A DNA stretch of 64,000 nt from Patescibacteria group bacterium (GCA_018896645.1 JAHIMF010000041.1:1980-65979); one strand, 5' to 3'. Numbered from the stretch's first letter, positions 25,437-61,442 are shown. Program-made: numbers and translations. Notes: generated by a model from the letters alone, not told the origin.

Positions 25437-26513
25437 TTATCTAGCGAGTCGTTTTCTAATTATGGGTCCTAGATGTTGAGCTAGGGAGATTGGTATAAAA
25501 TATTTCCAGATAAATGAGATAAATTTGAAACCGAGGTTGTGAGTTGTTAGATTTTGTTTCGAAGGTTTTGCCTGCCCGCCGTAGCCTTGGCGAAGGCGGG
25601 AGTTTTCTGGATATAAATAGAAAATATAATTATTTTGAATTTTTGCGCCCCATTTTTCTTTATACCTTTTTTGATTTTCGTAACGAACTGGTCCAAAATC
25701 AAAGCTTGTGTAGCCGTGTTCACAGCCCCACTTGATAAATTCCCAATGAGCCAAATCGTTAGGGCGGCAGTTCCAGAATTTTTTTAAAGAAGGATTTTTG
25801 GTAATGTGGATATTTTTTCCGCAAGTAAAACCCATTAGTGCGGCCACTACCAGCCCGTCTTTAGTGACTAGATATAATTTTAAGTCATTACTAAAACATT
25901 TTAGTTTGTTTAAAAAGTAATCAAGAGAATGCGGCGGCGTACCAAATCGTTTCATTGATTTGAGGTACAGAGGGTAAAAATGATTTTTGATCGCTTCGGG
26001 TGAATTGTTTTGAGAACACTTTAGGTTTGCGGACTCTGATTTCTTGATTGCTTTGCGGACGCTATAGTCAAATTTTTTGAAAAGCGAGTCGGGGTCTTTA
26101 TCTAAGATAAGAACAGCCCTGGAGTCATTTGGTTGCTTTTGGAAATGTTTCTGTAAAGAAGAGGATTGGATGTTTAATCCAGAGATAATTTTTAAATAAT
26201 TAATATTTTTTTCTTGCAAAAAGTTTTTTAATGCCTGGACGATTTCAGCTGGACTGACGATTGGATTTATTATAATTAAATCTCCATAGTCGGCAAAGGG
26301 CATGGAGATTAATTTTTTGTTTTTGCGAACGGCTGGAAGCAAGGCGATGATTTGTCCTTGATTTTTGATGAGGAGATAATTTGGCTTGTAATAGTAAGTT
26401 TCTTTTAGAACATTTTTGAAATTTGTGGTTTCACTAAAACGACAGAAGGGAGATTGTTGAATCAATTTGTCCCATATTTTTTCAGTATCGTTGGATAAGA
26501 GTTTGATTTCCAT
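25437..26513 (-). CDS. FemAB-like GNAT-fold acyl/aminoacyl transferase
   Basis: LISMPFADYG, FYPLY..SMKRFGTP, FDFG, YKEKWGA; carries an inserted RLRQGYGGQA peptide. Confidence 0.8.
   Translation of the reverse strand: MEIKLLSNDTEKIWDKLIQQSPFCRFSETTNFKNVLKETYYYKPNYLLIKNQGQIIALLPAVRKNKKLISMPFADYGDLIIINPIVSPAEIVQALKNFLQEKNINYLKIISGLNIQSSSLQKHFQKQPNDSRAVLILDKDPDSLFKKFDYSVRKAIKKSESANLKCSQNNSPEAIKNHFYPLYLKSMKRFGTPPHSLDYFLNKLKCFSNDLKLYLVTKDGLVVAALMGFTCGKNIHITKNPSLKKFWNCRPNDLAHWEFIKWGCEHGYTSFDFGPVRYENQKRYKEKWGAKIQNNYIFYLYPENSRLRQGYGGQAKPSKQNLTTHNLGFKFISFIWKYFIPISLAQHLGPIIRKRLAR
25570..25600. repeat. GC-rich palindromic element inside a CDS
   Basis: GCCTGCCCGCCGTAGCCTTGGCGAAGGCGGG; CCCGCC/GGCGGG stem; same GCCTGCCCGCC head occurs intergenically at 48904. 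Confidence 0.75.
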
Positions 26514-26518
26514 AAGGT

Positions 26519-27373
26519 CTATTTTAACTCTCTTCTGATAGCAGCAATTTGGTCAACCATAATCCCAAAGAAGAATATTAAGATGGTTGAAACGAAAAGA
26601 AGTATTGTTGAGTCGGAAATATTACGGCTTAAGATATCGTTTACAAGAAGAAAAATTGTTAGCAGAAAGAGGACAAAAGTAAGGGGCAGGAAGATTCGCA
26701 GGGGCGAGAATAAAGTGATTAGTCTGACGATGAGCATAAAAGTGTTTACAGCATCAGCTGGCTTGACACTGCTTTTCCCTTGGCGTTTGTTTATGGTAAT
26801 TGGAACGTATTTAACGTTTAGGCCGGTCTTAAAGAAGGTGAGAGTAATAGTTGTTGTTAAAGAGAAGCCATCGGGAAAGAGGTGGGCAAAACGCAAAAAA
26901 TGTTTTCTTTTTATTAATCTAAAGCCAGAGTTTAAGTCTGGTATTTTGTGTCCCGAAAGATAGTTTGCCGCCAGGTGCAAAATTTTTTTCCCCGGCTGTC
27001 TAAGCCACGGCCCTTGGTAGCCTTGCCGGGCGCCAATTATCATATCATACTCGTTTGTGTGTTTTAATAATTCAGAGATGTATTTTGGATTGTGCTGGCC
27101 GTCAGCATCATAAAACATAACCCAATCGTATTTGGCATTTTTTACGCCGGTTTTTAAGGAAGCGCCATAACCTTTATTATAGGGGTGGTTGATTGGTTTA
27201 ATGCAGCTGATTTTTTTTAAGAGCTCTTTTGTTTGGTCGTTTGACCCGTCGTTAACAACAATAATTTCGTGTTCAATATTAAAATCAGCCAGCTGACATT
27301 TGAGTTGGTTTAGAACTTCGTTTATTGATTTTTCTTCGTTATAAGCCGGGACAATTATTGATAGCTGTTTCAT
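26519..27373 (-). CDS. Glycosyltransferase family 2 (DPM1-like, two C-terminal TM helices)
   Basis: IIVPAYNEE, VNDGS.D, NKGYGA, DADGQH, DLNSGFR. Confidence 0.92.
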   Translation of the reverse strand: MKQLSIIVPAYNEEKSINEVLNQLKCQLADFNIEHEIIVVNDGSNDQTKELLKKISCIKPINHPYNKGYGASLKTGVKNAKYDWVMFYDADGQHNPKYISELLKHTNEYDMIIGARQGYQGPWLRQPGKKILHLAANYLSGHKIPDLNSGFRLIKRKHFLRFAHLFPDGFSLTTTITLTFFKTGLNVKYVPITINKRQGKSSVKPADAVNTFMLIVRLITLFSPLRIFLPLTFVLFLLTIFLLVNDILSRNISDSTILLFVSTILIFFFGIMVDQIAAIRRELK

Positions 27374-28239
27374 GGTGATGTTTTCTCTTGGCTTAGATAT
27401 TGGCCCAAAGATATAAAATTAAATTTATCTAATAATTTTTCAAATTTTTTAAACGCATTTTTTTTGTTCCAATAGAGCAATTTTTTTTTGTGCCAGGGCG
27501 CCGAAACATTTGGAATATGAGGGTCAAGCTCATGTTGGTGAATATAGATAACCGGAATAGTTTTTTTAGCGATGGATTTCAGTAAGAGTGAAAAGAAAAA
27601 GAGCGGGAACAAACGAAAATAGATGCCGCCAGCAACCGGGATATTTAAGCCAGCTATGTTTTTAGCGGCAATAGGAAATTCAAGAATTGAAGATTCACTA
27701 TCAGATTTTTTGACATCATTAAAACTAATTTTGTATGGTTGGCAAGAGATCATGGCGTTTTTTTTCATAACCTGAAATGCGGGGAATATGCTTGAATCAC
27801 AAATGTAGTGATATTTTTGAAGGATTGGCAGGAGCCATTTAGTGCTATTGTTCAAAGAACATCGCGGGGCGCGGAATATTTTAGGGGATGTGCCGGTTAT
27901 GGCCGTTAATACAGCCGTGGATTTTTTTATTTCTTGTTCGCAGGAATCTGGGTTCATGTCCCACAGGGCGAGATGAGAATATCCGTGATTTGCGATTTCA
28001 TGACCCGATATTATTATTTTTTTTATCAGTCCCGGGTATTTTTCCGCTAACTGCCCCAATACAAAAAAGGTGGCAGTACATTTTTTTTGCTGTAATAGTT
28101 TGAGAAGTTTTTCAGTTGCCGGGACAACCGTATCAGACAAATTATTTTTGTTTTTGGGGAGATAGTTTTTTAAAAATTCTGAATTATGCCAGAATTCCAA
28201 ATCAATCGTAAGGATAATTTTTGGTTTTTTTGGGTTCAT
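27370..28239 (-). CDS. Polysaccharide deacetylase (DUF3473/XrtA-system-like)
   Basis: TIDLE.W, ATFFVLG, HEIANHGYSH, FRAP, P.AGGIYFRL.P, YIHQHELDP. Confidence 0.88.
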   Translation of the reverse strand: MNPKKPKIILTIDLEFWHNSEFLKNYLPKNKNNLSDTVVPATEKLLKLLQQKKCTATFFVLGQLAEKYPGLIKKIIISGHEIANHGYSHLALWDMNPDSCEQEIKKSTAVLTAITGTSPKIFRAPRCSLNNSTKWLLPILQKYHYICDSSIFPAFQVMKKNAMISCQPYKISFNDVKKSDSESSILEFPIAAKNIAGLNIPVAGGIYFRLFPLFFFSLLLKSIAKKTIPVIYIHQHELDPHIPNVSAPWHKKKLLYWNKKNAFKKFEKLLDKFNFISLGQYLSQEKTSP

Positions 28240-28300
28240 TATTTTTAAAGAAAAGTTTTTTTTAATTCTTGTCTCGCGGTATATTAGAGTAGCGTTGGAC

Positions 28301-29736: not shown

Positions 29737-29783
29737 TTTTGTTTTCCTTGTATAATTTTGTGGGGGATGATATAATTAGAATG

Positions 29784-29945
29784 CATTAAAGCATTAAAAA
29801 TATAAAAATAAAATAATATAAAAATAAATGAAGAGGTGATTTTATATTATTTTATTATTTTATTTTTATATTCTTGTATTTTTATAATCGTTCTCGTGCT
29901 TTAATGTTTTAGTATTTTTATATTTTTAAGTTTTTATATTTTTAT
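29784..29945. repeat. AT-rich ~8-nt-period imperfect inverted array
   Basis: GCATTAAA GCATTAAA AATATAAA AATA... mirrored by TATTTTTA TATTCTTG TATTTTTA...TGCTTTAATG. Confidence 0.6.
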
Positions 29946-29946
29946 T

Positions 29947-32151
29947 ATGTCCCGTCTTGAAAGTATTTATGTCAATATCATAAAATTTGGAACCTATGTT
30001 ATTCTTTTTGTTCCATTGCTTATCACTAAGCAATTTTATTTTCCTTATATTTTTGGCAAGGCAATTACTATCCGGTCTATCGTTGAGATAATGGCAGTTG
30101 TTTATATTCTTTTGGTTTTGCATAATCCTCGCTTCAAGCCGCGATGTTCGTTATTATTCTGGGGGGTTGTTGTTTTTATGGGCGTAAAAGTCTTAAGCAC
30201 CCTTATGGGCGTCAATGTCTATCATAGTTTTTGGAGTAATTACGAGCGGATGGAAGGGCTTCTGACCTTGCTGCATTTTGGAATATTATTTGTGATTGTC
30301 AGTGGTGTTTTTAAAGAAAAAAAGGAATGGCTGACATTATTTAGAATAGCCGTTAGCGCCAGTTTTTGCGTGGCTTTATATGGATTGGGACAAAAATTAG
30401 GCCTTTCTTCATTGCTTCATTCTGACATTGAAAAAATTGACAGTACTATTGGCAACTCGTCTTACGTAGCAATCTATCTAGTAATGAATTTTTTTATTAC
30501 TGTCTACCTGTTTATTAAAGACCGGAATCTTTTTTGGCGGATATTTTATGGAATAATATTGCTTCTGGATGTAATAATTATTTTTTTCACAGCCAGCCGG
30601 GGTGGTATGCTGGGACTATTGGGCGGAATTTTTCTTTTGTTGATTTTTGTAGTGTTTTTTACTCCTATCGGGTTGGTCAAAAAAGGCTATAAATATTCAG
30701 CAATAGGAACAGTTATTTTTTTAATTTTGACTGTAGGCACAATTTATTTAAATAAAGGCAAAGAGTTCATAAATAATATTCATGTTTTAAGAAAACTGAC
30801 CACCATCTCTTTTGCTGACAGAACCATCCAGGATCGTTTTATTAATTGGAATATTGGCTGGCAGGGCTGGAAGGAGCGGCCAATATTAGGTTATGGTCCG
30901 GAAAATTATTATGTGTCGTTTAATAAGTATTATAATTCACGGACAAGTGAACCTTGGTTTGATCGGGCCCATAATATCATTTTTGATCAGCTCAATTCCA
31001 GTGGGATTTTAGGCCTTGCCAGTTACTTGTTTATTCTTTGTGTTAGTTTATATTATCTTTGGAAAAAGAGAAATAGGGATTTTTGGCTTTCAGTTAGTTT
31101 TATTGGGCTGATTTTCGGTTATTTTTTTGCTAACCTTTTTGTTTTTGATAATTCCAGCACCTATGCGATATTCTTTTTAGTTTTGGCTTTTATAAACTTT
31201 ATAGTTTCGGGTCAGGAAGATGCCGAAGACGAACAAGCAGAACCTTCTAGAAAATCAGTTAGTGTTTTTATACCCTTGGGTCTATTAGCTGTTCTAACGT
31301 TTAGTTTATATTTTTTTAATATCCGCCCGGCGATTGCCAACAATATCGGCATTGAGGCCTACAAATATTCGCGGGTTAATTATTCTAAATCAGTAGATTT
31401 ATTTAAGAAAGCCTTGGCTTACAATACTTTTGGGAATCCGGAAATGAGTTTGCGCATAGGCGATTATGCGCTTCACCTTTTTAATGAGCTTGATGAGGAA
31501 AAAAGGGAAGTAAAAGAAATTCTAGATTTTGCAATCCAGGAGCTGGAGGCAAGTATTAATGAGGAGCCTTTAAATGCTCGATATTATTTGTATGTTGCCA
31601 GTCTATACAATGTGCGTTCCCGGGTTGAAAACCGGGAAGAGAATCTAAATATGGTTCTTAAACATCTTAACAAAGCTAAAGAATTAAGCCCAGAGCGCAT
31701 TGAAGTTTATTTTCAACTGGGACAGATTGCTCTTTCTGCTGGTGACAGAGGACAAGCAGTGAGAGATTTTGAAAAAGCGTTTAAGATTAGACCCGATAGC
31801 AATGACACTCAACTGAATCTTATGTTGGCCTACCTTTATGTTGGAGATAAAGAGAAAATTGATAAACAATTTGAAATTTTAAGAGATTTTGGTTTTGTTG
31901 TTTTGGGCGGTAATCAGGTTGAGAAATTAGTTGCCGCATTATATGCCATAAAAGAACTTGATAAAATTATTCAACTTTTAGAAGCCTACCTGGCAAGTTA
32001 TCCATCGTCAGAGTTTTACGCTAAATTAGCTACGGTTTGTTTGGAAGCGGGGAATAAAGAGAAGGCAAGAGAATATACATTGAAAGCGATGGAGTTAAAT
32101 CCGGACTTGAAAGAAGAAGGAGAAGTTTTTTTAGAACAGTTGGAAGAATAA
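29947..32151 (+). CDS. O-antigen ligase/oligosaccharyltransferase-like (Wzy_C) membrane protein with C-terminal TPRs
   Basis: ERMEG, STIGNS, TASRGG, RPILGYGPENY, FDRAHN; TPR helices at the C-terminus. Confidence 0.88.
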   Translation: MSRLESIYVNIIKFGTYVILFVPLLITKQFYFPYIFGKAITIRSIVEIMAVVYILLVLHNPRFKPRCSLLFWGVVVFMGVKVLSTLMGVNVYHSFWSNYERMEGLLTLLHFGILFVIVSGVFKEKKEWLTLFRIAVSASFCVALYGLGQKLGLSSLLHSDIEKIDSTIGNSSYVAIYLVMNFFITVYLFIKDRNLFWRIFYGIILLLDVIIIFFTASRGGMLGLLGGIFLLLIFVVFFTPIGLVKKGYKYSAIGTVIFLILTVGTIYLNKGKEFINNIHVLRKLTTISFADRTIQDRFINWNIGWQGWKERPILGYGPENYYVSFNKYYNSRTSEPWFDRAHNIIFDQLNSSGILGLASYLFILCVSLYYLWKKRNRDFWLSVSFIGLIFGYFFANLFVFDNSSTYAIFFLVLAFINFIVSGQEDAEDEQAEPSRKSVSVFIPLGLLAVLTFSLYFFNIRPAIANNIGIEAYKYSRVNYSKSVDLFKKALAYNTFGNPEMSLRIGDYALHLFNELDEEKREVKEILDFAIQELEASINEEPLNARYYLYVASLYNVRSRVENREENLNMVLKHLNKAKELSPERIEVYFQLGQIALSAGDRGQAVRDFEKAFKIRPDSNDTQLNLMLAYLYVGDKEKIDKQFEILRDFGFVVLGGNQVEKLVAALYAIKELDKIIQLLEAYLASYPSSEFYAKLATVCLEAGNKEKAREYTLKAMELNPDLKEEGEVFLEQLEE

Positions 32152-32260
32152 TTAATAGAGTTAATATGGTAGTTAATAAAGTAGTTAATAATGGCGACGG
32201 CAGGTCTATTAACCTTATTAACAATTTTATTAACTCTATTAACAACCGTATTAACAATTT
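32152..32260. repeat. GTTAATA / TATTAAC inverted periodic array
   Basis: About four GTTAATA-like units, a GC spacer, then about five TATTAAC units. Confidence 0.7.
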
Positions 32261-36237: not shown

Positions 36238-36969
36238 ATGAAAATATTTATCATAATTCCAGCTTATAATGAAAGAGAGGCTGTTAATAGGGTAATAGAG
36301 AGAGCTCAATGTTATGGGCAGGTGGTGTTAGTTGACGATGGATCAACAGATGATACACTAAAAAGAGTTCAGAGTTGCGGGGTGCTCACACTGCGGCATT
36401 GCGTTAATTGTGGCCAGGGCGCAGCTTTAAAAACCGGCATTGATTACGCTTTAGCTAGTGGAGCCGAGATTATTGTAACCATGGATTCTGACGGTCAGCA
36501 CCGGCCAGAAGAGATTCCTCAGATAGTGAAGCCGATTGAGAGGGGTGAAGTAGATATTGTTTTGGGTTCTAGATTTTTGGAAGTTAGCACAAATGGCACC
36601 CCGCACAACTCACTTCGTTCGTATGCAGGGCGGGCAAAAGACCACAAAGACTGCATGAAATTTAAAATACCTTTTTCAAAAGAGTGGTTGGTCTTAAAAC
36701 CAGCGATTTTTTTTGAAAGGCTCTTTACGGGGTTAAAACTGACTGATGTTCATCAGGGGTTCCGGGCAATGTCCCGTGAAGCCGCCAAAAAAATTCAAAT
36801 AACCCAAGATAAAATGGCGCATGCCACTGAAATTATTTCAGAAATTAAAAGAAATAAATTACGTTGCAAAGAAGTGCCGGTAACTGTGGTTTATAATGAA
36901 TATGGGCAGGGGATGGGAGGTGCCTGGAAGATTTTGAAAGATTTGTTTTTCAAGAAAATAGTATATTGA
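36238..36969 (+). CDS. Glycosyltransferase family 2 (DPM1-like) with an in-frame repeat insertion
   Basis: IIPAYNE, VDDGSTD, N.GQGAALKTG, DSDGQH, GSRFL, TD...GFRA. Confidence 0.9.
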   Translation: MKIFIIIPAYNEREAVNRVIERAQCYGQVVLVDDGSTDDTLKRVQSCGVLTLRHCVNCGQGAALKTGIDYALASGAEIIVTMDSDGQHRPEEIPQIVKPIERGEVDIVLGSRFLEVSTNGTPHNSLRSYAGRAKDHKDCMKFKIPFSKEWLVLKPAIFFERLFTGLKLTDVHQGFRAMSREAAKKIQITQDKMAHATEIISEIKRNKLRCKEVPVTVVYNEYGQGMGGAWKILKDLFFKKIVY

Positions 36970-37050
36970 TTAATTGTTACATTGCTAAATTATTGCATTG
37001 CTGATGTGGATGATTGCTAACAATTTAGCAATTTGACAATGTAACAATTG
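36970..37050. repeat. 8-nt-period ATTG/CAAT inverted array
   Basis: ATTGTTAC ATTGCTAA...CAATTTAG CAATTTGA CAATGTAA CAAT; same family at 50930 and 52916. Confidence 0.7.
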
Positions 37051-37083
37051 GAACTAATTAATAATGGGCTAACAATTCTAACC

Positions 37084-38420: not shown

Positions 38421-39524
38421 ATGAAAAAGGCAGCCGTGATAATTGTTACATACAATGCGGAAAAGTATATTGAGCCACTTTTTGAGAGCTTAGCTAAGCA
38501 AGATTATCCTAAAGATGATTTTAGGCTTTTTTTGGTTGAGAATAAATCCGAGGATAAAACAATAGCAGAGATTAAAAAATGGGTTGATGCAGAGATAAAT
38601 AGGAATGGCTCTAATATTTCTAATAAATCTAATATCTTGAATAAGGATTTTTTGGATGTGGAGATTATTGAGAATAAGAAGAATCTGGGTTTTGCTGGGG
38701 GATATAATGTCGGAATGAATAAATCGTTGGATAGGGGATTTGATTATATTGTTTTATTAAATCAGGACATGGAAGTGGATGAGCACTGGCTAAGCGAGAT
38801 GGTGAAAAAAGTAGAATCAGACAAAAGTATCGGTGCAGTGCAATCCCTGATGTTGCTCACTAAAAAACGAGACAAAATAAATTCAACAGGTGAGCGTTTA
38901 AATTATTTAGGCATTGGATATAGTGGTAATTATCAATTATTAATTATCAATTATCAACCCAAGGATAACATAATCAGCTATGCTAGCGGTGCAGCCGTAT
39001 TATTCAAGTCAGACGTGCTCAAACGCGTTGGCTTATTCGACGAGTCATTTTTTATGTATCACGAGGATTCAGATTTGAGCTGGCGAGTTCGTCTGGCTGG
39101 TTATGACATTGTTTTAGCAGATAAGGCGATTGTTTATCATGATTATAAATTTAATCGTAATCCCAAGACATTTTATTGGACCGAGAAAAATCGTTTAACG
39201 TTTCTTTTGAAGAATTTTGAATTTAAGACATTAGTATTAATTTTTCCAATATTTGCGGTTATGGAATGCGGGATGTTGTTGCACGCGTTAGTAACCGGCT
39301 GGTTTTGGCAGAAGATCAAAAGTTATGGCTGGGTTTTGCGAAATTTAGGCAATATTTTAAAGTCAAGAAAAGAGGTGCAGGAATTGCGCAAGGTGCGTGA
39401 TCGTGATTTAAAAAAGTATTTGGTGGCAGGAATAGAGTTTGGAGGGCTGGAGAATGTATTGCTTAAATATGTGGCTAATCCAGTGTTAAAATTATACTGG
39501 TGGGTTGTGAAGAGGCTTATCTAA
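38421..39524 (+). CDS. Glycosyltransferase family 2 (rhamnosyltransferase-like)
   Basis: IIVTYN, NLGFAGGYN.G, LLNQD, GLFDESFFMYHED.DL.WR; ATG at 38421 is 6 nt after TACAAT (TTGTCA, 17 nt, TACAAT). Confidence 0.9.
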   Translation: MKKAAVIIVTYNAEKYIEPLFESLAKQDYPKDDFRLFLVENKSEDKTIAEIKKWVDAEINRNGSNISNKSNILNKDFLDVEIIENKKNLGFAGGYNVGMNKSLDRGFDYIVLLNQDMEVDEHWLSEMVKKVESDKSIGAVQSLMLLTKKRDKINSTGERLNYLGIGYSGNYQLLIINYQPKDNIISYASGAAVLFKSDVLKRVGLFDESFFMYHEDSDLSWRVRLAGYDIVLADKAIVYHDYKFNRNPKTFYWTEKNRLTFLLKNFEFKTLVLIFPIFAVMECGMLLHALVTGWFWQKIKSYGWVLRNLGNILKSRKEVQELRKVRDRDLKKYLVAGIEFGGLENVLLKYVANPVLKLYWWVVKRLI

Positions 39525-39724: not shown

Positions 39725-39795
39725 TAGAACAGTGTTTTCGGACAGTCTCATATATTCGTTTTAATTCGTGAATAATTCGAGTAATATTAGTGCTT

Positions 39796-40968
39796 ATGAA
39801 GATAGCTATTATCACCTCTACTTTCCCGCCCTACCGCGGCGGCATCGGCAATGTGGCCTATCAGGAAGCCCGGGAATTAGCGCGGCTTGGCAATCAGGTG
39901 ACAATTTTTACACCCAGGTATGATACGACCCAAGATAAAGTCCAAAAGGTTGATGGCCTTATTGTCAAGCGGCTTTTTTCATTGCTCAAATTTGGCAATG
40001 CGGCTTTTTTGCCGCAGCTTTTGTGGTCGTTGGGGGATTTTAATGTTTGGTATTTGCATTACCCGTTTTTTGGCGGTGCGGAGATTGTATGGCTTTTAAA
40101 GAAATTCAAGAAGTCAAAAAAAATAATTATTCGTTATCATATGGATGTGGTGGGCAGAGGATCGTTAGAATTTTTTTTTAACGCTCACTCCCGCTATATC
40201 ATGCCCAAAATTATCAAATCAGCGGACAGGGTAATTGTCTCGTCCTATGATTATGCTCATCATTCCAATATTAAAGAATTAATTTCAGGCAATCAAAAAA
40301 AATTTACAGAGATTCCTTTTGGGGTGGATTTGAAAAGTTTTATTCCCAGCTCAAAAGACGATTTATTTTTAGATGAATTAGGCGTGGCAGCAGAAGATAA
40401 GATAGCCATGTTTATAGGGACCTTGGATAAAGCCCATTATTTTAAAGGAGTGGAAATTTTGCTTCAGGCGTTTAGTTTGCTCGAAGACCGGCCTTACAAA
40501 TTAGTAATTGTTGGCGAAGGAGATTTGCGTTCACATTACGAAAAGATGGCTGAAAAATTAGGTATTACTAAAAAAGTAATTTTTGCCGGCGCGCCCAGCG
40601 ATAGAGATTTACCGGCATTTTATAACATTGCTGATGTTGTGGTTTTGCCTTCAATTGATAAAAGCGAGGCTTTTGGTTTGGTTTTAATAGAAGCCATGGC
40701 TTGCGCCAAACCCGTGATAGCTTCTGATTTGGCTGGGGTGAGGAGCGTGGTTGAAGATGGCGTTAATGGGTTTTTAGTTAAGCCCAAGAATACTGGTGAA
40801 TTGGCTAATCGGATTGATTATGTTTTGAGCAACATTGAGACTGCTAAGCAAATGGGGGGGAGAGGTCGGGAGAAAGTTGAGCGGGTTTATAATTGGGAAC
40901 GGGTTGGGCAAGATTTATCACGAATATTACACGAATTATTCACGAATTGCAATCGAATTTATATATGA
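39796..40968 (+). CDS. Glycosyltransferase family 4
   Basis: FPPYRGGIG, PFGVD, FKG, SEAFGLVLIEAMAC; ATG at 39796. Confidence 0.92.
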   Translation: MKIAIITSTFPPYRGGIGNVAYQEARELARLGNQVTIFTPRYDTTQDKVQKVDGLIVKRLFSLLKFGNAAFLPQLLWSLGDFNVWYLHYPFFGGAEIVWLLKKFKKSKKIIIRYHMDVVGRGSLEFFFNAHSRYIMPKIIKSADRVIVSSYDYAHHSNIKELISGNQKKFTEIPFGVDLKSFIPSSKDDLFLDELGVAAEDKIAMFIGTLDKAHYFKGVEILLQAFSLLEDRPYKLVIVGEGDLRSHYEKMAEKLGITKKVIFAGAPSDRDLPAFYNIADVVVLPSIDKSEAFGLVLIEAMACAKPVIASDLAGVRSVVEDGVNGFLVKPKNTGELANRIDYVLSNIETAKQMGGRGREKVERVYNWERVGQDLSRILHELFTNCNRIYI

Positions 40969-43584: not shown

Positions 43585-43747
43585 GCAATTAGTGATATTT
43601 ATCCATTTAGCATCTTTTCATTTATCATCTTTTTATTAATTTATTTGTTTATTAATTTATTGAATTTATTAATAAACTAATAAAAGCGAGCGAGCGCAAT
43701 AAATCAGTAAAAAATATGATAAATGGATATATGGAAAATGAAAATGT

Positions 43748-44263
43748 ATGAAACTCGGCGTTATCTCCGATACCCACGGGGAAATAGAAAAAATTAAAAA
43801 AGTCCTTGAAATTTTCAAAAAAAGAAGCGTAGAAATGATTATTCATGCCGGGGACATGGACAGGGTTAGAAATTTAGAAGTGTTTCAAGGCATTGGGGTG
43901 CCTTTAAAAATGGCAATTGGCAATATAGATGAAGAGCCTGTTTTGTATCCGCCGAAAGCCAAAGAATTAGGCCTTGATTTTGAAATGAACAGTTTTTTGA
44001 ATGTAGAAGCCGGGGAAAGGCGATTGTTTTTATTTCACGGTAATGTGTTGGGCGGGCTTGAGCAGGTATTTGATACCTTGATTACTTCTCGCAAATATGA
44101 TGTTATAATATACGGACATACGCACAAGCCGCGGAATGAATATAAAGATAATGTATTGATTTTAAACCCCGGTAGTTTACAATCAATTCAGTTGGGGATT
44201 AAAGATTCAGCGGCAGTGTATGATACAGAGACTAACAAGGCAAAGATTATAGAGGTTAATTAA
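43748..44263 (+). CDS. YfcE/MJ0936-family metallophosphoesterase
   Basis: SDTHG, HAGD, GN.D, FHG, GHTH, NPGS. Confidence 0.92.
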   Translation: MKLGVISDTHGEIEKIKKVLEIFKKRSVEMIIHAGDMDRVRNLEVFQGIGVPLKMAIGNIDEEPVLYPPKAKELGLDFEMNSFLNVEAGERRLFLFHGNVLGGLEQVFDTLITSRKYDVIIYGHTHKPRNEYKDNVLILNPGSLQSIQLGIKDSAAVYDTETNKAKIIEVN

Positions 44264-44298: not shown

Positions 44299-46344
44299 AT
44301 GAAACTTTTAATTACCGGCGGGGCCGGGTTTATCGGCTCCAATTTTATCCGTTATATTTTAAAAAAATATCCAGGTTATAAAATTATTAATCTGGATAAA
44401 TTAACTTATGCCGGGAACTTGGAGAATTTGCGTGACTTATCCGCCCCTGGCGGAGAGAATGATCCCAGATATAAATTTGTTAAAGGTGATATTTGTGATG
44501 AGAAAATTGTCAGTGAAGCGGCCAAGGATGTTGATGCAATAGTGAACTTTGCGGCAGAAAGCATTTCAGAAGAAACCTACTTACCGATTTGGAACAGAGG
44601 AAATATAGAAGTTACTACCCTGAAAGAACTGTTTGAGAAAGTTGTTCATCAAAATAAGACAAAGGTGGTGGTCCGAAAAGACAGAGAAATAATTAATTTT
44701 GCTCATAAAAATTATAAAGTTCTATCATATAAAGGTGGTATTGGCTATTGGATGCCAATTAAGCAAATGAGTAGACATAAGTATAAAGGCAAATTAATAA
44801 GACTGAGTCAAAAATGGGGAGAGATTACTGCCACACCCAATCATTCAATTTATGACTGTGATTTTAATTTGACCACCCCCCTTAAAAATCCAGAACTTTT
44901 AGGTTTAAGAAACATAAACCACATTTCCAAAAAAAAGAAATATCTGAATTTTTCAGGTAAAAAGTTAAAGGTCCTATTAAGAGTTTTGGGAGCCTACATT
45001 TCTGAAGGTTGGACAACATATAATAAAAGGAATGGGAGCTATCATTTTGGTATATCTAATACTGATGAAGAACAGATAGTATTGCTAAAAGATGATTTAT
45101 TATCGCTGGGTTATAGACCGAATATTACCAAAACAAAGGGTGGATTATTTCAGCTAATAATTAGTAATAAAGGTTTTTTTAATTTTGTTAGAAAAGAGGC
45201 GGGATTTAGATCAGCAGGTAAATTTATTCCCTCTTTTATTTTTCAGCTAGAGACTTCTCTACAACAAGAATTTTTGCGGCTGTTAGTGTGGGGAGATGGG
45301 CAAGAGATAGTAAATAAAAATTATAAAACCACAAGATATGTTACTAAATCTAAAAAATTAGCTACAGGGCTATCTTTATTGCTTTCTCTATTTCATTATA
45401 ATTATTCTGTAGGTTATGATAAAAGATTCAATGCTTACATCATTGTTTGGGGTAATGATTATACGATTTCATTAATAAATAAAGAATATACAGAAATACC
45501 TTACGACGGTTATGTTTATGATATTTCAGTAGATAATTTAAAAAACTTTGTTTGCGGAGTAGGGAATATAGTTGTTCATAATACGCATGTGGACCGCTCG
45601 CTTTACGAACCTGGTAGTTTTATTAAAACCGATGTTTATGGCACTTGGGTTTTGCTTGAGGTAGTGAAAAGGTTTAAGATTAAAAAATATTTGCAGGTCT
45701 CAACTGATGAAGTTTATGGTGATGTTTCTAGCCCCAATTTTTCAAAAGAGACGGACTTGTTGCACCCCTCGTCTCCTTATTCTGCTTCTAAGGCTGGCGG
45801 TGATATGCAGGTATTGGCAAGTCACCGAACTTTTGACTTACCGATTTTAATTACCAGAAGTTCTAATAATTATGGACCTTTCCAATATCCAGAAAAAATT
45901 GTACCTTTGTTTATAACGAATTGTCTGGAAAATAAGGAAGTGCCGGTTTATGACGGGGGAACGCAGATCAGGGATTGGTTGTATGTTGAGGATAATTGTA
46001 CGGGCATTGATACGGTATTACACAAAGGCGAGTTTGGCGAGATTTATAATATCGGCGCTAATCAAGAGCCGGAAATTACTAATTTGGAGTTGACCAAAAC
46101 AATATTAAAATTAACCGAGAAAGATGAATCTTTAATCAAACACGTTACTGGTCTTAGGCCTGGTCATGACCAACGTTATGCAGTGGACACTACAAAGATT
46201 CGTAAATTAGGATGGGAACCCAAAATGAGTTTTAAGGAGGGCATGAGTCAAACGGTTTATTGGTATGTTAAGAATCAGGATTGGTGGAAGAAGATAAAGA
46301 GCGGAGAATATCTTGAGTATTATAAGAAGCATTATCGCGAGTGA
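44299..46344 (+). CDS. rfbB: dTDP-glucose 4,6-dehydratase, intein-containing precursor (340 aa after splicing)
   Basis: TGGAGFIGSNF, LDKLTYAGN, NFAAE|THVDRS split by the intein, STDEVYG, PSSPYSASKA, YGP.QYPEK, RPGHD.RYA. Confidence 0.95.
   Translation: MKLLITGGAGFIGSNFIRYILKKYPGYKIINLDKLTYAGNLENLRDLSAPGGENDPRYKFVKGDICDEKIVSEAAKDVDAIVNFAAESISEETYLPIWNRGNIEVTTLKELFEKVVHQNKTKVVVRKDREIINFAHKNYKVLSYKGGIGYWMPIKQMSRHKYKGKLIRLSQKWGEITATPNHSIYDCDFNLTTPLKNPELLGLRNINHISKKKKYLNFSGKKLKVLLRVLGAYISEGWTTYNKRNGSYHFGISNTDEEQIVLLKDDLLSLGYRPNITKTKGGLFQLIISNKGFFNFVRKEAGFRSAGKFIPSFIFQLETSLQQEFLRLLVWGDGQEIVNKNYKTTRYVTKSKKLATGLSLLLSLFHYNYSVGYDKRFNAYIIVWGNDYTISLINKEYTEIPYDGYVYDISVDNLKNFVCGVGNIVVHNTHVDRSLYEPGSFIKTDVYGTWVLLEVVKRFKIKKYLQVSTDEVYGDVSSPNFSKETDLLHPSSPYSASKAGGDMQVLASHRTFDLPILITRSSNNYGPFQYPEKIVPLFITNCLENKEVPVYDGGTQIRDWLYVEDNCTGIDTVLHKGEFGEIYNIGANQEPEITNLELTKTILKLTEKDESLIKHVTGLRPGHDQRYAVDTTKIRKLGWEPKMSFKEGMSQTVYWYVKNQDWWKKIKSGEYLEYYKKHYRE
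44560..45582 (+). mobile_element. Intein with LAGLIDADG homing endonuclease (341 aa)
   Basis: Starts Ser (SISEET), block B TATPNH, endonuclease motifs LGAYISEG and LVWGDG, block F VYDISV, ends VVHN followed by Thr; removal restores AAETHVDRS. Confidence 0.93.
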
Positions 46345-50065: not shown

Positions 50066-50920
50066 ATGGATATTCTTCATCTCAAAAAAATTCTCAAATT
50101 AACTAAAGCTGGGTTGATTTTGTTTTTTGTTTTTCTCTTTTGCTATTTATTTTATAAAGATTTTGTACCTTCTGGAAAATTAGTTATCATTAATAATTTT
50201 CAAAATAAATCGCAATTGATTTCTGATTTATATCCTGATGTGCGGGTGGAAAAAATTAAGCAAGACGAGCAGGGAAATTTTTATCAAACAATGTTTATTG
50301 ATCCAGTATATTTTAAGATAAACCCGCCGCGGGCGTTTAGGAAAGCGACGATAAAAATTGTTTATAAAAATAAAGAGCAATCATTGTTTCAAATTGGTTT
50401 AAAGCTTGGGGAAGAAGGTTGGGTATTTGATTTTAAGACTTTGGAATTTCAAAAGATCGATGATTTATCGTGGTATAAATTGCAAAAAGATAATCTTATC
50501 CTTTTACAAAAATCCAGGCGATACCGAGAGATCGACGATTTTTTACTGGAGCCGCCCACCCAGGGCCGGATTGCTCAATTTGGCTATACTTTAGAGCTTG
50601 CCAACCCGGCTGATTATTTATTAACAGCCCTTAACACAAAAACTGATCTTAATCATATCAGTTATATCATTGCTCGATACATCCAACCAGAGGTTGACGA
50701 CAGTGATATCAAAACAGCCCAGGCTGAGTTTTTTATTGATCGTTCTTTTCTTGTTGATGGGAAATTAGTATTTATTTTTTCTGCTCCGGAAATGGATGTT
50801 AATAAGCGCGAAATAGACATTTACGAAATTCAAGTTGCTCTAGAACGGGAACCCCTTAAATTGGGCAACACTATCAGACAAGCTGGGGGATATTTGAAGG
50901 ATATCATAGTAAATTTTTAA
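50066..50920 (+). CDS. Membrane-anchored hypothetical protein
   Basis: N-terminal TM helix, 284-aa ORF. Confidence 0.7.
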   Translation: MDILHLKKILKLTKAGLILFFVFLFCYLFYKDFVPSGKLVIINNFQNKSQLISDLYPDVRVEKIKQDEQGNFYQTMFIDPVYFKINPPRAFRKATIKIVYKNKEQSLFQIGLKLGEEGWVFDFKTLEFQKIDDLSWYKLQKDNLILLQKSRRYREIDDFLLEPPTQGRIAQFGYTLELANPADYLLTALNTKTDLNHISYIIARYIQPEVDDSDIKTAQAEFFIDRSFLVDGKLVFIFSAPEMDVNKREIDIYEIQVALEREPLKLGNTIRQAGGYLKDIIVNF

Positions 50921-50929
50921 TAGGTTTTC

Positions 50930-50995
50930 ATTGTTACATTGTTTTATTGCTTATTTTTCTTGTTAACAATGTAGCAATGAAGCAATGTAACAATG
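50930..50995. repeat. 8-nt-period ATTG/CAAT inverted array
   Basis: ATTGTTAC ATTGTTTT ATTGCT...CAATGTAG CAATGAAG CAATGTAA CAATG. Confidence 0.7.
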
Positions 50996-51087
50996 GGCGC
51001 CATTGACTAGCCATTAACTGAGTAACCTGAAAAGCCATAATTATTCAACAATCAAAACTAAACATCTTTCTTTGGTTTTCGGCTAAA

Positions 51088-51270: not shown

Positions 51271-52831
51271 TTTTGTAGATTCCGTTTTTGTCGCCTATTT
51301 CAGCGTGAAGATAGATAAAATTTTTGTCCTTGTTGGGAAACAAATTGTAAATTTTTTTCACCTCAAGTAAATTAACAATGTTGCGTCGATTTCGGCTATC
51401 AAGCTCCAATGCATAGATTATATCTTTGCCGGCATTTTTCAGGGAGAGCAGTAAATAGTTTTGTTCTTTTGTGGATATAATTTTTTTGATTTCCGAGCTA
51501 AACCGGCTAAGAATGTATCTGGTGTCTTGCAAGGGTTTGCCATTGGAGTCGTAATTTTTTAAATCAGTTTGCCAAATTTCAAAATCATTATAATAAATCA
51601 AAGTTTGTGAAGCGGGTAAATAAAGGACATCTTTAGCTTTTGTTTCATTAAGAATAACTTCTTTAGTTTTGGTATTGATAAGCCAGATTTTTTGTTCGTG
51701 CCCTCTTTGGAAAAAGTCACCAGCAAGGGCTGATGATCCCCGCCCGGGAAAATCATCAGCCCTTGCTGGTGATTGAACTAATAATAATTCATCATCAATT
51801 TTAGAAAGAGAATACAGCGTACCTTGGTTTTGGGAGGAACCAAGCGGTAGCTCCAAGAGACAAGTCTTGGAAATCGCTTCAATTCTTAGGCTGCTGCCGT
51901 CTGTAGTCAAACCTACATAATTTAGGCACCAGTTCTCTTGCCATTTTTTAAGATAGAAAATATTCCAATCCTTGGCTATTAAAAAATCATCAAGACTTTG
52001 AGTTTTTATTTGCAGAAAAGGTTTTATTTTTTTTGTGAAAAGATTTATTTGATAGGTAGTGTTTTTTCTGGCGCCGTAAATAAGATTAGGATTTTGATGG
52101 TCCCACTTTAGATTGTCTAGCGGCGTATAGTTTTGGAAAGAATTTACTGATGTATTTTCTCCGGTTTCTGCATTGATGATTATATAATTTTTATATTCTG
52201 GTTTTTGTTCAGTAATTAATATTTTTTGGCTGGTATTATTCCATTTGATGTCAATAATTGAATCATGAGTTTCAAACAGGGTAGTCGTTTGTTCGGTTTT
52301 GATATCCAGTAGTTTTAAGGTGTTATTTAATAAGAGAGCCGTTTTTTGCTGATCCGGGGCAATCTGCACCTGGCTGATGTTTCCTTGAGTGAGCGCTTGA
52401 ATTTCCGGCTGCAAACGGAAGAGCAGCACTTGGTCAGCAAAAGTTGCTTCATTGCTGGTGATAGTTAATCTCTTGACCCAGGGGTGATAATCAGGTTTTG
52501 TCAGTTTAATAAGATATTCATTAGGAATAAGATTATTAATAATCAAAGGTGTTTTTTGAATATTTTTTTGCTCTTGGCTTTGGGTGGCAGCGATGATTCT
52601 AAATAAAGTCCTCCAGGCGCTGCCTGAAAATAGATTTTGACGAGGTTGGTTGTCAATATAGACAGAAGCAGCTTTTGGGTAAGTTTCAAGAATTAAACTG
52701 CCGGTTTTAACAATTTCGTGTTTTTTAAAATCATAACGAAAACCACTGCTAGCGAGAATTAGCAAAGGCGCAGTGATTAGGAAAAGTATGATGATTGAGA
52801 GGTAAATTAAGCGGCGGAGAGTGATGTTCAT
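51257..52831 (-). CDS. PEGA-domain membrane-anchored protein with a probable beta-propeller
   Basis: TM, then GFRYDF...VKTGSL...TYPK.ASVYID; TP..I.NL.P.EY.I...K.DY..W.K; ATG at 52831. Confidence 0.8.
   Translation of the reverse strand: MNITLRRLIYLSIIILFLITAPLLILASSGFRYDFKKHEIVKTGSLILETYPKAASVYIDNQPRQNLFSGSAWRTLFRIIAATQSQEQKNIQKTPLIINNLIPNEYLIKLTKPDYHPWVKRLTITSNEATFADQVLLFRLQPEIQALTQGNISQVQIAPDQQKTALLLNNTLKLLDIKTEQTTTLFETHDSIIDIKWNNTSQKILITEQKPEYKNYIIINAETGENTSVNSFQNYTPLDNLKWDHQNPNLIYGARKNTTYQINLFTKKIKPFLQIKTQSLDDFLIAKDWNIFYLKKWQENWCLNYVGLTTDGSSLRIEAISKTCLLELPLGSSQNQGTLYSLSKIDDELLLVQSPARADDFPGRGSSALAGDFFQRGHEQKIWLINTKTKEVILNETKAKDVLYLPASQTLIYYNDFEIWQTDLKNYDSNGKPLQDTRYILSRFSSEIKKIISTKEQNYLLLSLKNAGKDIIYALELDSRNRRNIVNLLEVKKIYNLFPNKDKNFIYLHAEIGDKNGIYKITIH
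51717..51772. repeat. Perfect 21-bp inverted repeat inside a CDS
   Basis: TCACCAGCAAGGGCTGATGAT, 14-nt loop, ATCATCAGCCCTTGCTGGTGA. Confidence 0.85.
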
Positions 52832-56911: not shown

Positions 56912-57124
56912 TGTTCTCTCCTTTCCAAGAGAAAAAGTGACAGAAAAATATTTAACTCCAGCCAAAAAGTTCATTAAAGTGTCCAAATAAGGCCTTTCAT
57001 GCCTTTTGGAAGCAGGTTTAGAGGAATGAATTTTCAAGGAGCGAATTTATTAAATAAGGATAGTATGGTTTAGAATTTTTGTCAAAGCTTTGCTATAAAA
57101 ATGTTATTGTGGAAATTATGGGAT

Positions 57125-57227: not shown

Positions 57228-57285
57228 CAGCCAGAGGTTGACCTCCCCCAAAGGCGGATGAGCATCTGGTCCAAACCTTTGGCTG
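57228..57285. repeat. CAGCCA...TGGCTG palindromic element with a nested insert
   Basis: CAGCCAGAGGTT / AACCTTTGGCTG arms inside AT-rich AGTTA/TAAC repeats. Confidence 0.65.
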
Positions 57286-57360
57286 GGAAAAGTTAGAAAT
57301 TATCAAGTTAACCTATAACCAGTCTAACTTTTCTAATCAGTTTAACTCGCATCATTTTTT

Positions 57361-58722: not shown

Positions 58723-58745
58723 TTTTTTAAATAAACAATATAGAT

Positions 58746-59066: not shown

Positions 59067-59108
59067 TGGGAAAGAATATGAAAAAAAATCACAACGTTGA
59101 TAAGGTTT

Positions 59109-59137
59109 CGGTCAAAGACCGGCCAGTCTCTGGCTGG
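59109..59137. repeat. Double-hairpin element within GTTAATAA repeats
   Basis: CGGTC-AAA-GACCG followed by CCAGTC-TCT-GGCTGG. Confidence 0.65.
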
Positions 59138-59166
59138 AATAATGTTAATAAGATTAATAAATTGAC

Positions 59167-59610
59167 ATGAAAGTAATACTTTTGAAAAATATTGACAATC
59201 TGGGTAAGAAAGGCGAAGTCAAGGAGGTAGCGAACGGCTTTGCTCGTAATTTTTTATTGCCAAAAAAGATGGCTGTTGCGGCATCTCCTGGAAACTTAAA
59301 AATGGCGCGGGAGATGAAGCAAGGTGAAGAGGAAAAAAGAAAAAAAGGAAAAATTAATTTGCGGGAATTAAAGAAAAAGCTGGCTGGCAAAGAAGTCAGA
59401 ATTAGGGCTAAAGCCAGTAAAGAAGGGCATTTATTTGCCGGTATCGGGGCCGACAAGATAAACGAAGTTTTAGCGGATGCGATGGGCGTCAAAATAAAAC
59501 CTTCAATGATAAAATTAAATAAAAAGATTAAGACATTGGGTGAGCATAGGGTAGAGGTTAAGGTGGGGGATGGAAGAGTAGAGGTGAAAGTGAGAGTAGA
59601 GAAGGAGTAA
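59167..59610 (+). CDS. rplI: 50S ribosomal protein L9
   Basis: MKVILL..I.NLGKKGEVKEVANGFARNFLLPK; G.LF..I; IKTLGEH.V.V. Confidence 0.97.
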   Translation: MKVILLKNIDNLGKKGEVKEVANGFARNFLLPKKMAVAASPGNLKMAREMKQGEEEKRKKGKINLRELKKKLAGKEVRIRAKASKEGHLFAGIGADKINEVLADAMGVKIKPSMIKLNKKIKTLGEHRVEVKVGDGRVEVKVRVEKE

Positions 59611-59723
59611 ATTTTTATTTATAACCAATAACAAATCCCAGCCAAGGGCAAAGTTGAGCTTAGCTTAGCTCTGCTGGCCACCTTCTGGGTGATAATTTTA
59701 TAACTCATGACTCTTTTTGACCC

Positions 59724-61442
59724 ATGAAATCTAAATTTACCCTGAACCATTCTTCTAGTTCTTCAAATGTACAGATTAAGAGCGATAGGAATAAAAATTT
59801 TTCAAGAAAATTTAAGTTATCTACAAAAGGTACAGGGTTTATTTTTGTAGTTGGAGGAGTGATGTCAGGCATTGGTAAAGGTACCACCACGGCTTCCATT
59901 GGCAAGATTTTGCAAAGCCGCGGTTTTAAAGTTACGGCGGTAAAAATCGATCCCTATATCAATGTTGACGCCGGCACTATGAATCCAATTGAGCATGGTG
60001 AGGTTTTTGTAACTGATGACGGCGATGAGACGGATCAGGATATTGGTAATTATGAACGATTTTTAGACCAAGATATTACCACTGATAATTATATGACCAC
60101 GGGCCGGGTTTATGAAACCGTGATTCATAAAGAAAGAAATTTGGACTATGGCGGTAAGTGCGTAGAAGTAGTGCCCCATATTCCCGAGGAAGTAATCAGG
60201 CGGATTGAAAAAGTAGCTCGTAGGGGCTACGATTTTGTTTTGATAGAGGTTGGCGGGACAGTAGGGGAATATCAGAATATTTTATTTCTTGAGGCGGCTC
60301 GAATGATGAAAATAAAACACCCTGGAGATGTTTTATTTGTTTTAGTCAGTTATTTACCCATCCCCGCTAAAATAGGCGAGATGAAAACCAAACCAACGCA
60401 GTATGCCGCGCGCACTTTAAATTCAGCCGGGATTCAGCCGGATTTTATTATTTGTCGTTCAGAGAAACCTTTGGACAAGCCACGGAAGCAGAAGATATCT
60501 ATTTTTTGTAATATTCAGCCAGAAGATGTTATTAGCGCTCCAGATGCGGATTCTATTTACGAAATTCCGGTTAATTTTGAGAAAGATAAAATTGGCGAGA
60601 GGATTTTGAACAAATTTGGGCTTAAATGCGGTAAAAAGGATTTAAAGGATTATAAAAAATTAAATCAAACAGTAAAAAGAGTCAAACGCCAGGTAACCAT
60701 TGGAATAATTGGCAAGTATTTTGCCACTGGCAAGTTTGTGCTTTCTGATGCATATATTTCGGTGATTGAAGCCGTTAAGCATGCTTGCTGGGGGCACAAA
60801 CGAAAACCAGAAATTTTATGGTTGAACAGCGAGGAGTATGAGCAAGATAAAAAGAAATTAAATGAACTTAAAAAATTAGACGGAATTATTATTCCTGGTG
60901 GTTTTGGCTCCAGGGGGGTGAAAGGTAAAATTTTGGTTATTCAATATGCGCGAAAGAATAACGTTCCTTATTTAGGACTATGCTATGGCATGCAGTTAGC
61001 CACGGTGGAATTTGCGCGCAATGTTTGCGGTATGCGAGGTGCGCATACTACGGAGATTGAGTCAGATACCAAATATCCGGTGATTCACGTGATGCCAGAC
61101 CAGGAAAAGAAACTTTTGGCTCGTGATTATGGCGGGACCATGAGATTGGGCGCCTGGCCATGCGTTTTAAAAAAAGGCACTAAGAGCTCCAAAGCCTACG
61201 GCCAGCGAAAGATAGAAGAACGGCACCGGCATCGGTATGAGTTAAATAATAAATACAGAGAAAGATTAGAGAAAAAAGGTTTGAATATTGCCGGCACTTC
61301 ACCGGATGGCAAGCTGGTAGAAATCATTGAACTGCCTAAACATAAGTTTTTTGTGGGGGTGCAGTTTCATCCGGAGTTTAAAAGCCGGCCATTGCGTCCG
61401 CACCCGTTGTTTCGGGAATTTGTGAAAGCGGCGATTAGCTGA
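59724..61442 (+). CDS. pyrG: CTP synthase with a 34-aa N-terminal insertion
   Basis: FIFVVGGVMSGIGKG, KIDPYINVDAGTMNP.EHGEVFVT, KTKPTQ, PGGFG.RG, LGLCYGMQ, ERHRHRYE, QFHPEF. Confidence 0.97.
   Translation: MKSKFTLNHSSSSSNVQIKSDRNKNFSRKFKLSTKGTGFIFVVGGVMSGIGKGTTTASIGKILQSRGFKVTAVKIDPYINVDAGTMNPIEHGEVFVTDDGDETDQDIGNYERFLDQDITTDNYMTTGRVYETVIHKERNLDYGGKCVEVVPHIPEEVIRRIEKVARRGYDFVLIEVGGTVGEYQNILFLEAARMMKIKHPGDVLFVLVSYLPIPAKIGEMKTKPTQYAARTLNSAGIQPDFIICRSEKPLDKPRKQKISIFCNIQPEDVISAPDADSIYEIPVNFEKDKIGERILNKFGLKCGKKDLKDYKKLNQTVKRVKRQVTIGIIGKYFATGKFVLSDAYISVIEAVKHACWGHKRKPEILWLNSEEYEQDKKKLNELKKLDGIIIPGGFGSRGVKGKILVIQYARKNNVPYLGLCYGMQLATVEFARNVCGMRGAHTTEIESDTKYPVIHVMPDQEKKLLARDYGGTMRLGAWPCVLKKGTKSSKAYGQRKIEERHRHRYELNNKYRERLEKKGLNIAGTSPDGKLVEIIELPKHKFFVGVQFHPEFKSRPLRPHPLFREFVKAAIS
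59740..59837. mobile_element. MITE-like in-frame insertion in pyrG
   Basis: Ends CCCTGAACC / GGTACAGGG (8/9 inverted), flanked by direct TTTA (59736-59739, 59838-59841); removal gives MKSKFIFVVGG. Confidence 0.75.

Follow-up and report, generated by a model that had tools for sequence, protein, structure and literature searches.

In-Frame Repeat Insertions in Proteins of a Patescibacteria Group Bacterium and Candidate Nuclease-Linked Elements That May Spread Them

RESULTS

Insertions in the window

We analyzed a 64,000-nucleotide (nt) stretch of DNA from a Patescibacteria group bacterium (GCA_018896645.1, JAHIMF010000041.1:1980-65979; G000:C16:1980-65979), referred to below as the window. It contains a locus for glycan biosynthesis, with housekeeping genes after it, and is part of a 1.33-Mb genome assembled in 92 contigs, designated G000. 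Most named homologs come from Patescibacteria, and the organism is accordingly regarded here as an ultra-small member of the candidate phyla radiation (CPR). The comparison relative, G001, was compared over 738 kb and yielded 294 pairs of orthologs with at least 45% identity, with a median identity between orthologs of 59%. An initial annotation of the window had proposed that at least seven of its genes carry small palindromic elements that add peptides to the encoded proteins without disturbing the reading frame. All ten of these peptides were indeed found in frame in the named open reading frames (ORFs) (Table 1). By alignment with homologs, eight of the peptides are net insertions, one lengthens a variable loop, and one is an overwrite that left the loop length unchanged (NYQLLIINYQ). 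The description of the inserts as palindromic fits the GC-rich hairpins but not the AT-rich half, which are single arms of tandemly repeated words.

Table 1. Repeat-derived features of the window (positions counted from its first nucleotide; aa, amino acids)
Feature	Position	Strand	Evidence
FemAB/GNAT gene: Fem-type 30-nt unit encoding RLRQGYGGQA, composed of a 26-nt GC hairpin and a CAGG tail	25571..25600	-	10-aa gap relative to P0001
GT2 36238 insert of about 24 aa: GC hairpin (36597-36641) amid CACAAA-like words	36580..36660	+	Comparison of homolog spans
GT2 38421 site 1 (SNISNKSNI): insert of about 22 aa, 9-nt TCTAATA-type array; insertion hot spot	38580..38650	+	Homologs
GT2 38421 site 2 (NYQLLIINYQ): AATTATC heptamer array overwriting a loop	38928..38957	+	Homologs
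Membrane protein 41024 site 1 (residues 129-147): GTCACTA words around a nested 26-nt GC hairpin (41426-41451)	41408..41469	+	Arm match
Membrane protein 41024 site 2: mosaic of AAGAAAT/AAGAAAC, CAATTA, and GTTAATA words, like a gene-less cassette	43064..43189	+	Homologs, arm match
RmlB N-extein: 15-nt palindrome (SAPGG), core of the SASGG family	44440..44454	+	5-aa gap relative to G001
PEGA-domain gene: 56-nt near-perfect hairpin	51717..51772	-	Homolog gap
pyrG codon 5: 98-nt CCCTG.ACC...GGT.CAGGG element between two TTTA repeats, adding 34 aa	59736..59841	+	G001 has one TTTA
TAAAAATA / TTAAAGCA arrays, inverted, intergenic	29775..29948		
GTTAATA arrays, inverted intergenic pair (gene-less two-armed copy)	32147..32259		
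8-nt arrays, inverted, intergenic	36972..37065		
TCACGAAT arms around a long GC hairpin, intergenic; resembles (by eye) repeats upstream of the C12 GIY-YIG gene	39525..39792		Fold -107 kcal/mol
TCACGAAT array forming the C-terminal codons of glycosyltransferase 39790-40968	40917..40968	+	Sequence; additional to the initial annotation
AT-word arrays, inverted, intergenic	43595..43749		
CAATGTA arrays, inverted, intergenic	50913..51019		

The FemAB/GNAT protein has exactly 10 aa more than protein P0001, which a protein search found to be 68% identical; among 151 genomes, no homolog at an E value of 1e-25 was found outside G000. In its structure model (pLDDT, 91.9), the lowest values occur at residues 308-313, and the insert is the only segment below 50. 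The loop with the hairpin in GT2 36238 spans 50 aa, as opposed to 24 to 26 aa in 59 of the 78 proteins parsed (120 were listed), and this hairpin has two intergenic relatives. The 34-aa insert of PyrG is missing at all 21 loci of relatives. Since the start context of pyrG is identical in G001, where TTTA is single, and the next common start codon lies past the first conserved strand, an annotation slip is unlikely; among the codons of the insert, only CTG (codon 7) and ATT (codon 18) offer alternative starts in frame. For the PEGA-domain protein, all 22 distant homologs (about 25 to 35% identity) have a gap of 22 to 24 aa. The PEGA hairpin barely constitutes a family, because it has one relative in G000 and its matches in 19 of 401 genomes are at about the control level. 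The SASGG pattern, in turn, was matched 111 times in G000 (palindromes were possibly counted twice) versus 2 times in a shuffle. The RmlB gene (44299-46344) also encodes an intein of about 341 aa with a LAGLIDADG domain, which the G001 RmlB lacks.

Among the AT-rich sites, site 1 of GT2 38421 spans 53 aa versus 31 aa in 13 of the 22 homologs parsed; the remaining 9 are longer and carry other words or hairpins. At site 2, a loop of 28 aa compares with 26 to 32 aa in 23 of 24 homologs. The two peptides at site 2 of the membrane protein, KKLRNKKQET and VNNVNRVNN (residues 685-722), belong to one insertion, missing in all 29 homologs. At its site 1, the ends of the insert cannot be fixed because the loop is already variable among homologs.

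An assembly artifact had been named as one way in which the insertions might prove spurious. At two sites this does not apply, because contigs from other runs span the insert unchanged. The GT2 36238 insert is spanned in run X2, which belongs to the study that is the possible source, and the insert at residues 685-722 of the membrane protein in run X6, which belongs to another study. None of the contig joints listed from other runs skips an insert.

Word arrays and lineage-specific insertions across the genome

A de novo scan of the genome detected 637 tandem arrays, of which 353 lay between genes, 197 within coding sequence, and 87 at gene edges. Periods of 7 and 8 predominated, and the words were common to many loci. 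Coding arrays of period 7 or 8 numbered 149, more than expected by chance: two shuffles of codon order gave 1 and 3, and three synonymous shuffles gave 12 to 17. Away from the gene cassettes described below, 162 arrays of periods 7 to 9 were located in 98 genes out of approximately 1,190 ORFs. An inverted partner was found within 250 nt for 144 of 283 intergenic arrays (control, 19) versus 6 of the 162 coding arrays (control, 5). Within genes, the orientation of the words was one-sided (49:0, 28:0, and 11:0). The first of these ratios belongs to AATTATC, whose opposite strand contains stop codons, and the second to AAGAAAC, for which both strands are open and the reverse peptide is hydrophobic.

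We then considered insertions of at least 5 aa among G000/G001 orthologs, 65 of which were present in G000 and 53 in G001. When inserts of up to 60 aa were examined for a dispersed copy in their own genome, 33 of 63 had one in G000 (controls, 87 of 630) and 33 of 53 in G001 (controls, 88 of 530). Thus, about half of the coding insertions specific to one lineage have dispersed copies. This test was used instead of a classifier based on periodicity and hairpin scores, which flagged 15 of 65 insertions in G000 and 4 of 53 in G001 and missed short nested hairpins. No pair of frameshifted relic copies was found between G000 and the compared part of G001. UvrC (L085, G000:C57:30987) has about five repeat-derived segments, consisting of an SASGG core and several word arrays, and the G001 UvrC carries other inserts.

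The initial annotation was therefore right that several inserts have relatives between genes and that multiple repeat families are involved, namely, AT-word arrays and several types of GC hairpins. The one system into which it had placed them turned out to be several.

AT-rich words and nuclease or four-helix-bundle cassettes

Profile searches of the genome returned 20 matches to the PF05635 four-helix-bundle family and 4 to the GxxExxY family. To our knowledge, no role has been assigned to the TIGR02436 and TIGR04256 proteins. The bundle and GxxExxY genes are flanked by inverted arrays of 7- to 9-nt words, and the word differs from one group of cassettes to another. An inverted-flank score of at least 30 was obtained for 11 of 18 scored bundle genes and all 4 GxxExxY genes, versus 19 of 1,087 other ORFs. 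Inverted arms were also present at 17 of 22 GxxExxY loci in relatives. Five of these 22 loci (L352, L353, L354, L355, and L358) contain a whole stop-free arm-GxxExxY-arm cassette in frame within a host gene. The hosts are one GT2 and, as we presume from motifs, one ValRS and, three times, RecG. In the GT2 host, identified by family search, the cassette occupies the loop equivalent to site 1 of GT2 38421, and no intein Pfam match was found in the fusion. All five long bundle ORFs that were read (L379-L383) are fused through a word arm to the N terminus of pilin-like proteins, two of which were confirmed by Pfam.

Arms of such cassettes also match inserts in the window. The right part of site 1 of the membrane protein is identical over 18 of 18 nt to the upstream arm of a four-helix-bundle cassette on contig C86, and site 2 is identical over 37 of 41 nt to the arm of a cassette on C84. 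Matches in GT2 38421 were weaker relative to controls. The best one for site 1, to a GxxExxY cassette on C72, scored 36 versus 31 for the control, and the AATTATC word of site 2, which is the commonest word of the genome, matches the arm of a four-helix-bundle cassette on C92.

In 61 genomes, the number of heptamer matches was correlated with the number of bundle genes (rho = 0.49, with kin not independent; 0.78 on 24 family means) and with that of GxxExxY genes (rho = 0.47), with exceptions in either direction. Some weak PF05635 matches in these counts may be Avd, to which PF05635 is reported to be homologous (PMC10053308). The GxxExxY protein, a PD-(D/E)XK nuclease, is the likeliest cutter and a predicted mobilizer, and the Avd-like bundle protein is a likely binding partner in the cassette.

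GC hairpins and small GIY-YIG genes

The GC hairpins are fixed units of 15 to 100 nt with covarying stems and are nested in word arrays and in one another. The Fem-type hairpin has a fixed length of 26 nt. Seventeen full copies were found in G000 and the compared part of G001, 9 of them within genes, and 15 of the 17 end in CAGG, TAAA, or CAAG, which brings the unit to 30 nt. In the SASGG family, the core measures 15 nt, and an AT word usually comes after it. The outer base pair of the Fem-type stem is Watson-Crick in all 15 distinct sequences, as are pairs of the SASGG stem in 83 and 88 of 99 matches. No target-site duplication was seen for any of 17 Fem-type or 75 SASGG copies. The hairpin nested in site 1 of the membrane protein belongs to a family with 13 matches in G000.

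The PyrG-type family consists of 28 copies of a hairpin of about 24 to 100 nt with a variable loop. Direct repeats of 4 nt accompany 9 of these copies, as opposed to a permutation mean of 2.5. Comparison of coding and intergenic copies for length modulo 3, as suggested with the initial annotation, gave a result for this family: length fits the frame in 9 of 11 coding versus 6 of 17 noncoding copies (P = 0.024). The pyrG insert was initially taken for a classical miniature inverted-repeat transposable element and turned out to be a long-loop member of this family. No partner arm for the PyrG termini was found around a gene within 1.5 kb; transposase families were not searched. A scan of genome contigs gave only three exact long copies, which have TTTA repeats and are all from delta-proteobacterial records (L268-L270). 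Thus, the family is not confined to the CPR.

A small GIY-YIG gene on contig C57 has Fem-type units upstream. Among its metagenome relatives, 80 loci were collected, 4 of which were cut at the 5' end and set aside. In the 76 loci counted, the Fem-type hairpin was found upstream in 52 and downstream in none, and it occurred in none of 978 control windows. The initial annotation had suggested a search for GIY-YIG genes flanked by the same units; for the Fem-type hairpin, such a gene was found, with the units on its upstream side only.

By eye, members of this GIY-YIG clade (L271-L350) are often located directly after or between tRNA genes, many of them following a tRNA 3' end. Another small GIY-YIG gene (L083, G000:C12:2804) lies downstream of GTCATTCCG-type hairpins, with which it likely forms an Ssn-like pair; its protein could be aligned with that of C57 over no more than 29 aa. 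A further GIY-YIG gene (L084, G000:C70:37372) has inverted flanks. Directly after it lies a sequence resembling RNase P RNA in its motif, and the gene may sit in or beside that RNA gene.

DISCUSSION

Proposed origin of the inserts

The phenomenon is real and extends over the genome and the order. Observed directly are the layouts, the matches in sequence, the nesting of elements, the covariation of stems, the co-occurrence of repeats and genes, and the selection biases. Our favored interpretation, which we hold with moderate confidence, is that the inserts come from several repeat families dispersed over the genome, were likely left by small selfish elements whose predicted mobilizers are nearby nuclease genes, and are probably translated as neutral surface loops. 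Partner proteins would cut or bind the repeats and the elements would move, and single arms would be the remnants of cassettes.

We envisage two tiers of elements. In the first, a cassette of a word arm, a GxxExxY nuclease or bundle gene, and an inverted arm would insert between and within genes. Gene-less two-armed copies are seen between genes. Within genes, a single arm would remain after loss of the gene and the other arm, or would arise through one-arm conversion. In the second tier, GC hairpins of 15 to 100 nt would insert independently, often into first-tier arrays or into each other, and the small GIY-YIG protein would nick the Fem-type hairpin by analogy with Ssn nucleases, which nick theirs. 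Selection would retain the copies that hold the frame, lack stop codons, and lie in tolerant loops; such biases are seen in the orientation of words within genes and in the lengths of coding PyrG-type copies. The mobilizer that the initial annotation had placed elsewhere in the genome thus has predicted candidates, the GxxExxY and bundle cassettes for the AT words and GIY-YIG for the Fem hairpin.

Several observations weigh against this interpretation. Genome-wide, 104 of the 162 coding arrays matched cassette arms, a modest excess over the 66 obtained with reversed controls. Some array-rich genomes lack the partner genes: 6 of 14 had no GxxExxY match, and 6 of 18 bundle-less genomes had at least two heptamer matches. 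That arms are shared may mean no more than that cassettes were duplicated together with their flanks or landed in existing arrays. The GIY-YIG gene is not bracketed, because its Fem-type hairpins lie upstream only. For the PyrG, SASGG, PEGA, and GT2 36238 hairpins, the analysis identified no partner gene. No empty allele was seen in the other runs compared, among the matches listed, and G001 is too distant at its median identity for the insertion rules to be fixed from it.

The first two of these points also favor an origin of the AT arrays by local replication slippage and host recombination, with small genes passively landing in the arrays or riding along and no dedicated mobilizer, as does the tandem, low-complexity nature of the arrays. 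We consider this origin unlikely. The same few words occur at dozens of unlinked sites, periods 7 and 8 prevail despite breaking codons, and half of the intergenic arrays form inverted pairs. Homologous loops without an insert contain no seed of the word, and GC hairpins cannot be produced in this way.

Selection might also keep the inserts for what the new loops do, for instance in binding, in regulation, or in varying the surface. In favor of this, insertions recur in the same loops throughout the order, surface or glycan genes are frequent targets, and AAGAAAC is confined to the orientation that gives a polar peptide although both strands are stop-free. However, both loops of GT2 38421 and that of GT2 36238 contain different words or hairpins in different relatives, so that the peptides at one site are wholly different; stems covary at the nucleotide level; and most homologs have no insert at all. 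Such differences suggest repeated independent events at tolerant loops, and passengers that are tolerated fit them better than a selected function, which we regard as quite improbable. The initial annotation saw in the inserts a source of protein novelty, which is visible solely in the form of extra residues. The inserted pieces are probably translated as harmless, neutral surface loops.

Removal or skipping of the elements at the RNA level, either in the manner of rRNA intervening sequences or by hairpin-guided splicing, would leave the proteins normal. The bundle protein has been described in intervening sequences of rRNA (10.1101/2024.02.27.582315), and two-armed copies fold strongly. Coding arrays, however, are nearly all unpaired single arms; all keep the frame and avoid stop codons, which would be unneeded if they were excised; no frameshifting pairs were found between G000 and the compared part of G001; and the window gave no match to Rfam. 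Translation is favored by the combination of single arms, open frames, and orientation bias, and removal from RNA appears very unlikely.

Telomerase-like synthesis of the words from an RNA template by the Avd-like bundle protein and a reverse transcriptase (RT) draws on the Avd homology, weak Avd matches, and the one RT in G000, but it is largely refuted and highly improbable: this RT adjoins an Avd gene of its own, in the arrangement of a diversity-generating retroelement, an RT is present in only 1 of 14 array-rich genomes, and the RT count falls as the heptamer count rises (rho = -0.39, 61 genomes). Movement of the hairpins by a RAYT (Y1) transposase, as in classical repetitive extragenic palindromes (REPs), is scarcely credible even though two Y1 genes have palindromic flanks and a GTAG-tagged palindrome family is present, since by eye these flanks are unlike all ten inserts and the inserts lack a terminal GTAG tag.

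Comparison with known systems

The precedent invoked in the initial annotation was that of Rickettsia palindromic elements (RPEs), which are about 105 to 150 bp long, encode a conserved peptide per family, and are inserted in frame in unrelated genes, with no mobilizer reported (PMC10969869, PMC3184786). The inserts described here are similarly dispersed repeats in frame in unrelated protein genes, including housekeeping genes, and are absent from homologs. They depart from the 105- to 150-bp palindrome in that the units have 15 to 102 nt, half are nonpalindromic tandem words present as unpaired single arms, elements are nested, and candidate partner genes are linked to them. Intragenic GTAG/CGTC REPs are hairpins of 20 to 40 nt, some of them in ORFs, that occur as dimers and clusters (PMC3733652). 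Our short hairpins share these traits but, by eye, have no terminal GTAG or CGTC tag, their tails being CAGG, CAAG, or TAAA; the insert at 41421 holds CGTCAT within a word array. The RAYT genes, also by eye, are flanked by palindromes other than the units of the inserts.

Ssn proteins are GIY-YIG nucleases associated with NTS/SRM hairpins, 2% of NTS being in genes, and their authors raise an origin like that of insertion sequences (PMC11893778). The Fem type alone resembles this system, in that a gene for a single-domain GIY-YIG protein of about 90 aa lies beside a dispersed hairpin family. Unlike in Ssn/SRM, the hairpin is upstream only, often (by eye) at a tRNA 3' end, and 9 of 17 copies are in genes. 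The SRM motif had no match in the window or in any insert and 5 chance-like matches in the genome.

The four-helix-bundle family is also that of the 23S_rRNA_IVP intervening sequences, which occur in CPR hosts in ORF-bearing and ORF-less forms (10.1101/2024.02.27.582315). Both forms and the same type of host recur here, but the 20 matches are scattered along the chromosome and have word arms, and proteins contain sequence of such arms. Tandem repeats in Borg ORFs likewise add segments, disordered ones, to proteins (PMC9879509). Borg repeats have locus-unique units divisible by three; ours are mostly 7 to 8 nt and shared by dozens of loci. In cyanobacteria, heptamer arrays known as short tandemly repeated repetitive sequences reportedly hold 20- to 30-nt hairpins nested in arrays and in each other, some of them coding, and are not known to have a named partner gene. 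Homing endonucleases of inteins or introns do not match, given the GT2-GxxExxY fusion without an intein Pfam match and the lack of Rfam matches in the window, nor do retroelements, given the rarity of RT in array-rich genomes.

In-frame palindromes (RPEs and intragenic REPs) and hairpin-nuclease pairs (Ssn/SRM) are thus already known. Literature searches, judged from titles and the openings of abstracts, found no description of a word-armed GxxExxY or bundle cassette. We tentatively suggest that such cassettes may represent an undescribed class of mobile elements in Patescibacteria: a PD-(D/E)XK nuclease of about 130 aa or an Avd-like bundle protein between inverted 7- to 9-nt arrays, without a transposase, integrase, or splicing domain, that would insert in frame, be translated as a guest domain, and decay to single arms. 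Together with the GIY-YIG hairpins, they could account for about half of new loop insertions in these proteomes.

It has long been an open question how repeats spread that are too short to encode anything, among them RPEs, heptamer arrays, and many REP-like hairpins. If the proposal is true, two long-uncharacterized protein families would gain a function and the spread of bacterial heptamer arrays would be explained. The pairing of certain repeats with certain small genes in this genome offers a direct basis for assays of binding, cleavage, and mobility. A reduced genome is not free of selfish DNA, since 98 genes here carry word arrays, among them that for UvrC, and pyrG carries a hairpin, and the inserts are relevant for annotation, phylogeny, and ideas on the origin of new protein loops.

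Additional features of the genome

The RT gene and its bAvd neighbor, which likely form a diversity-generating retroelement, lie on opposite strands at L142:1306-2725 (G000:C35). The two RAYT-like Y1 genes (L056 and L057) have palindromes of their own, and the L057 hairpin occurs both within the gene and downstream; the GTAG-tagged palindrome family has a 28-nt unit and about 14 to 18 copies in the genome. A 461-aa insertion at G000:C21:1124 begins with Cys, is lacking in the G001 ortholog, and is likely another intein. Within the window, positions 54477-57037 form a GC-richer islet that encodes an FlgD/Por-tail protein and a HEAT-repeat protein.

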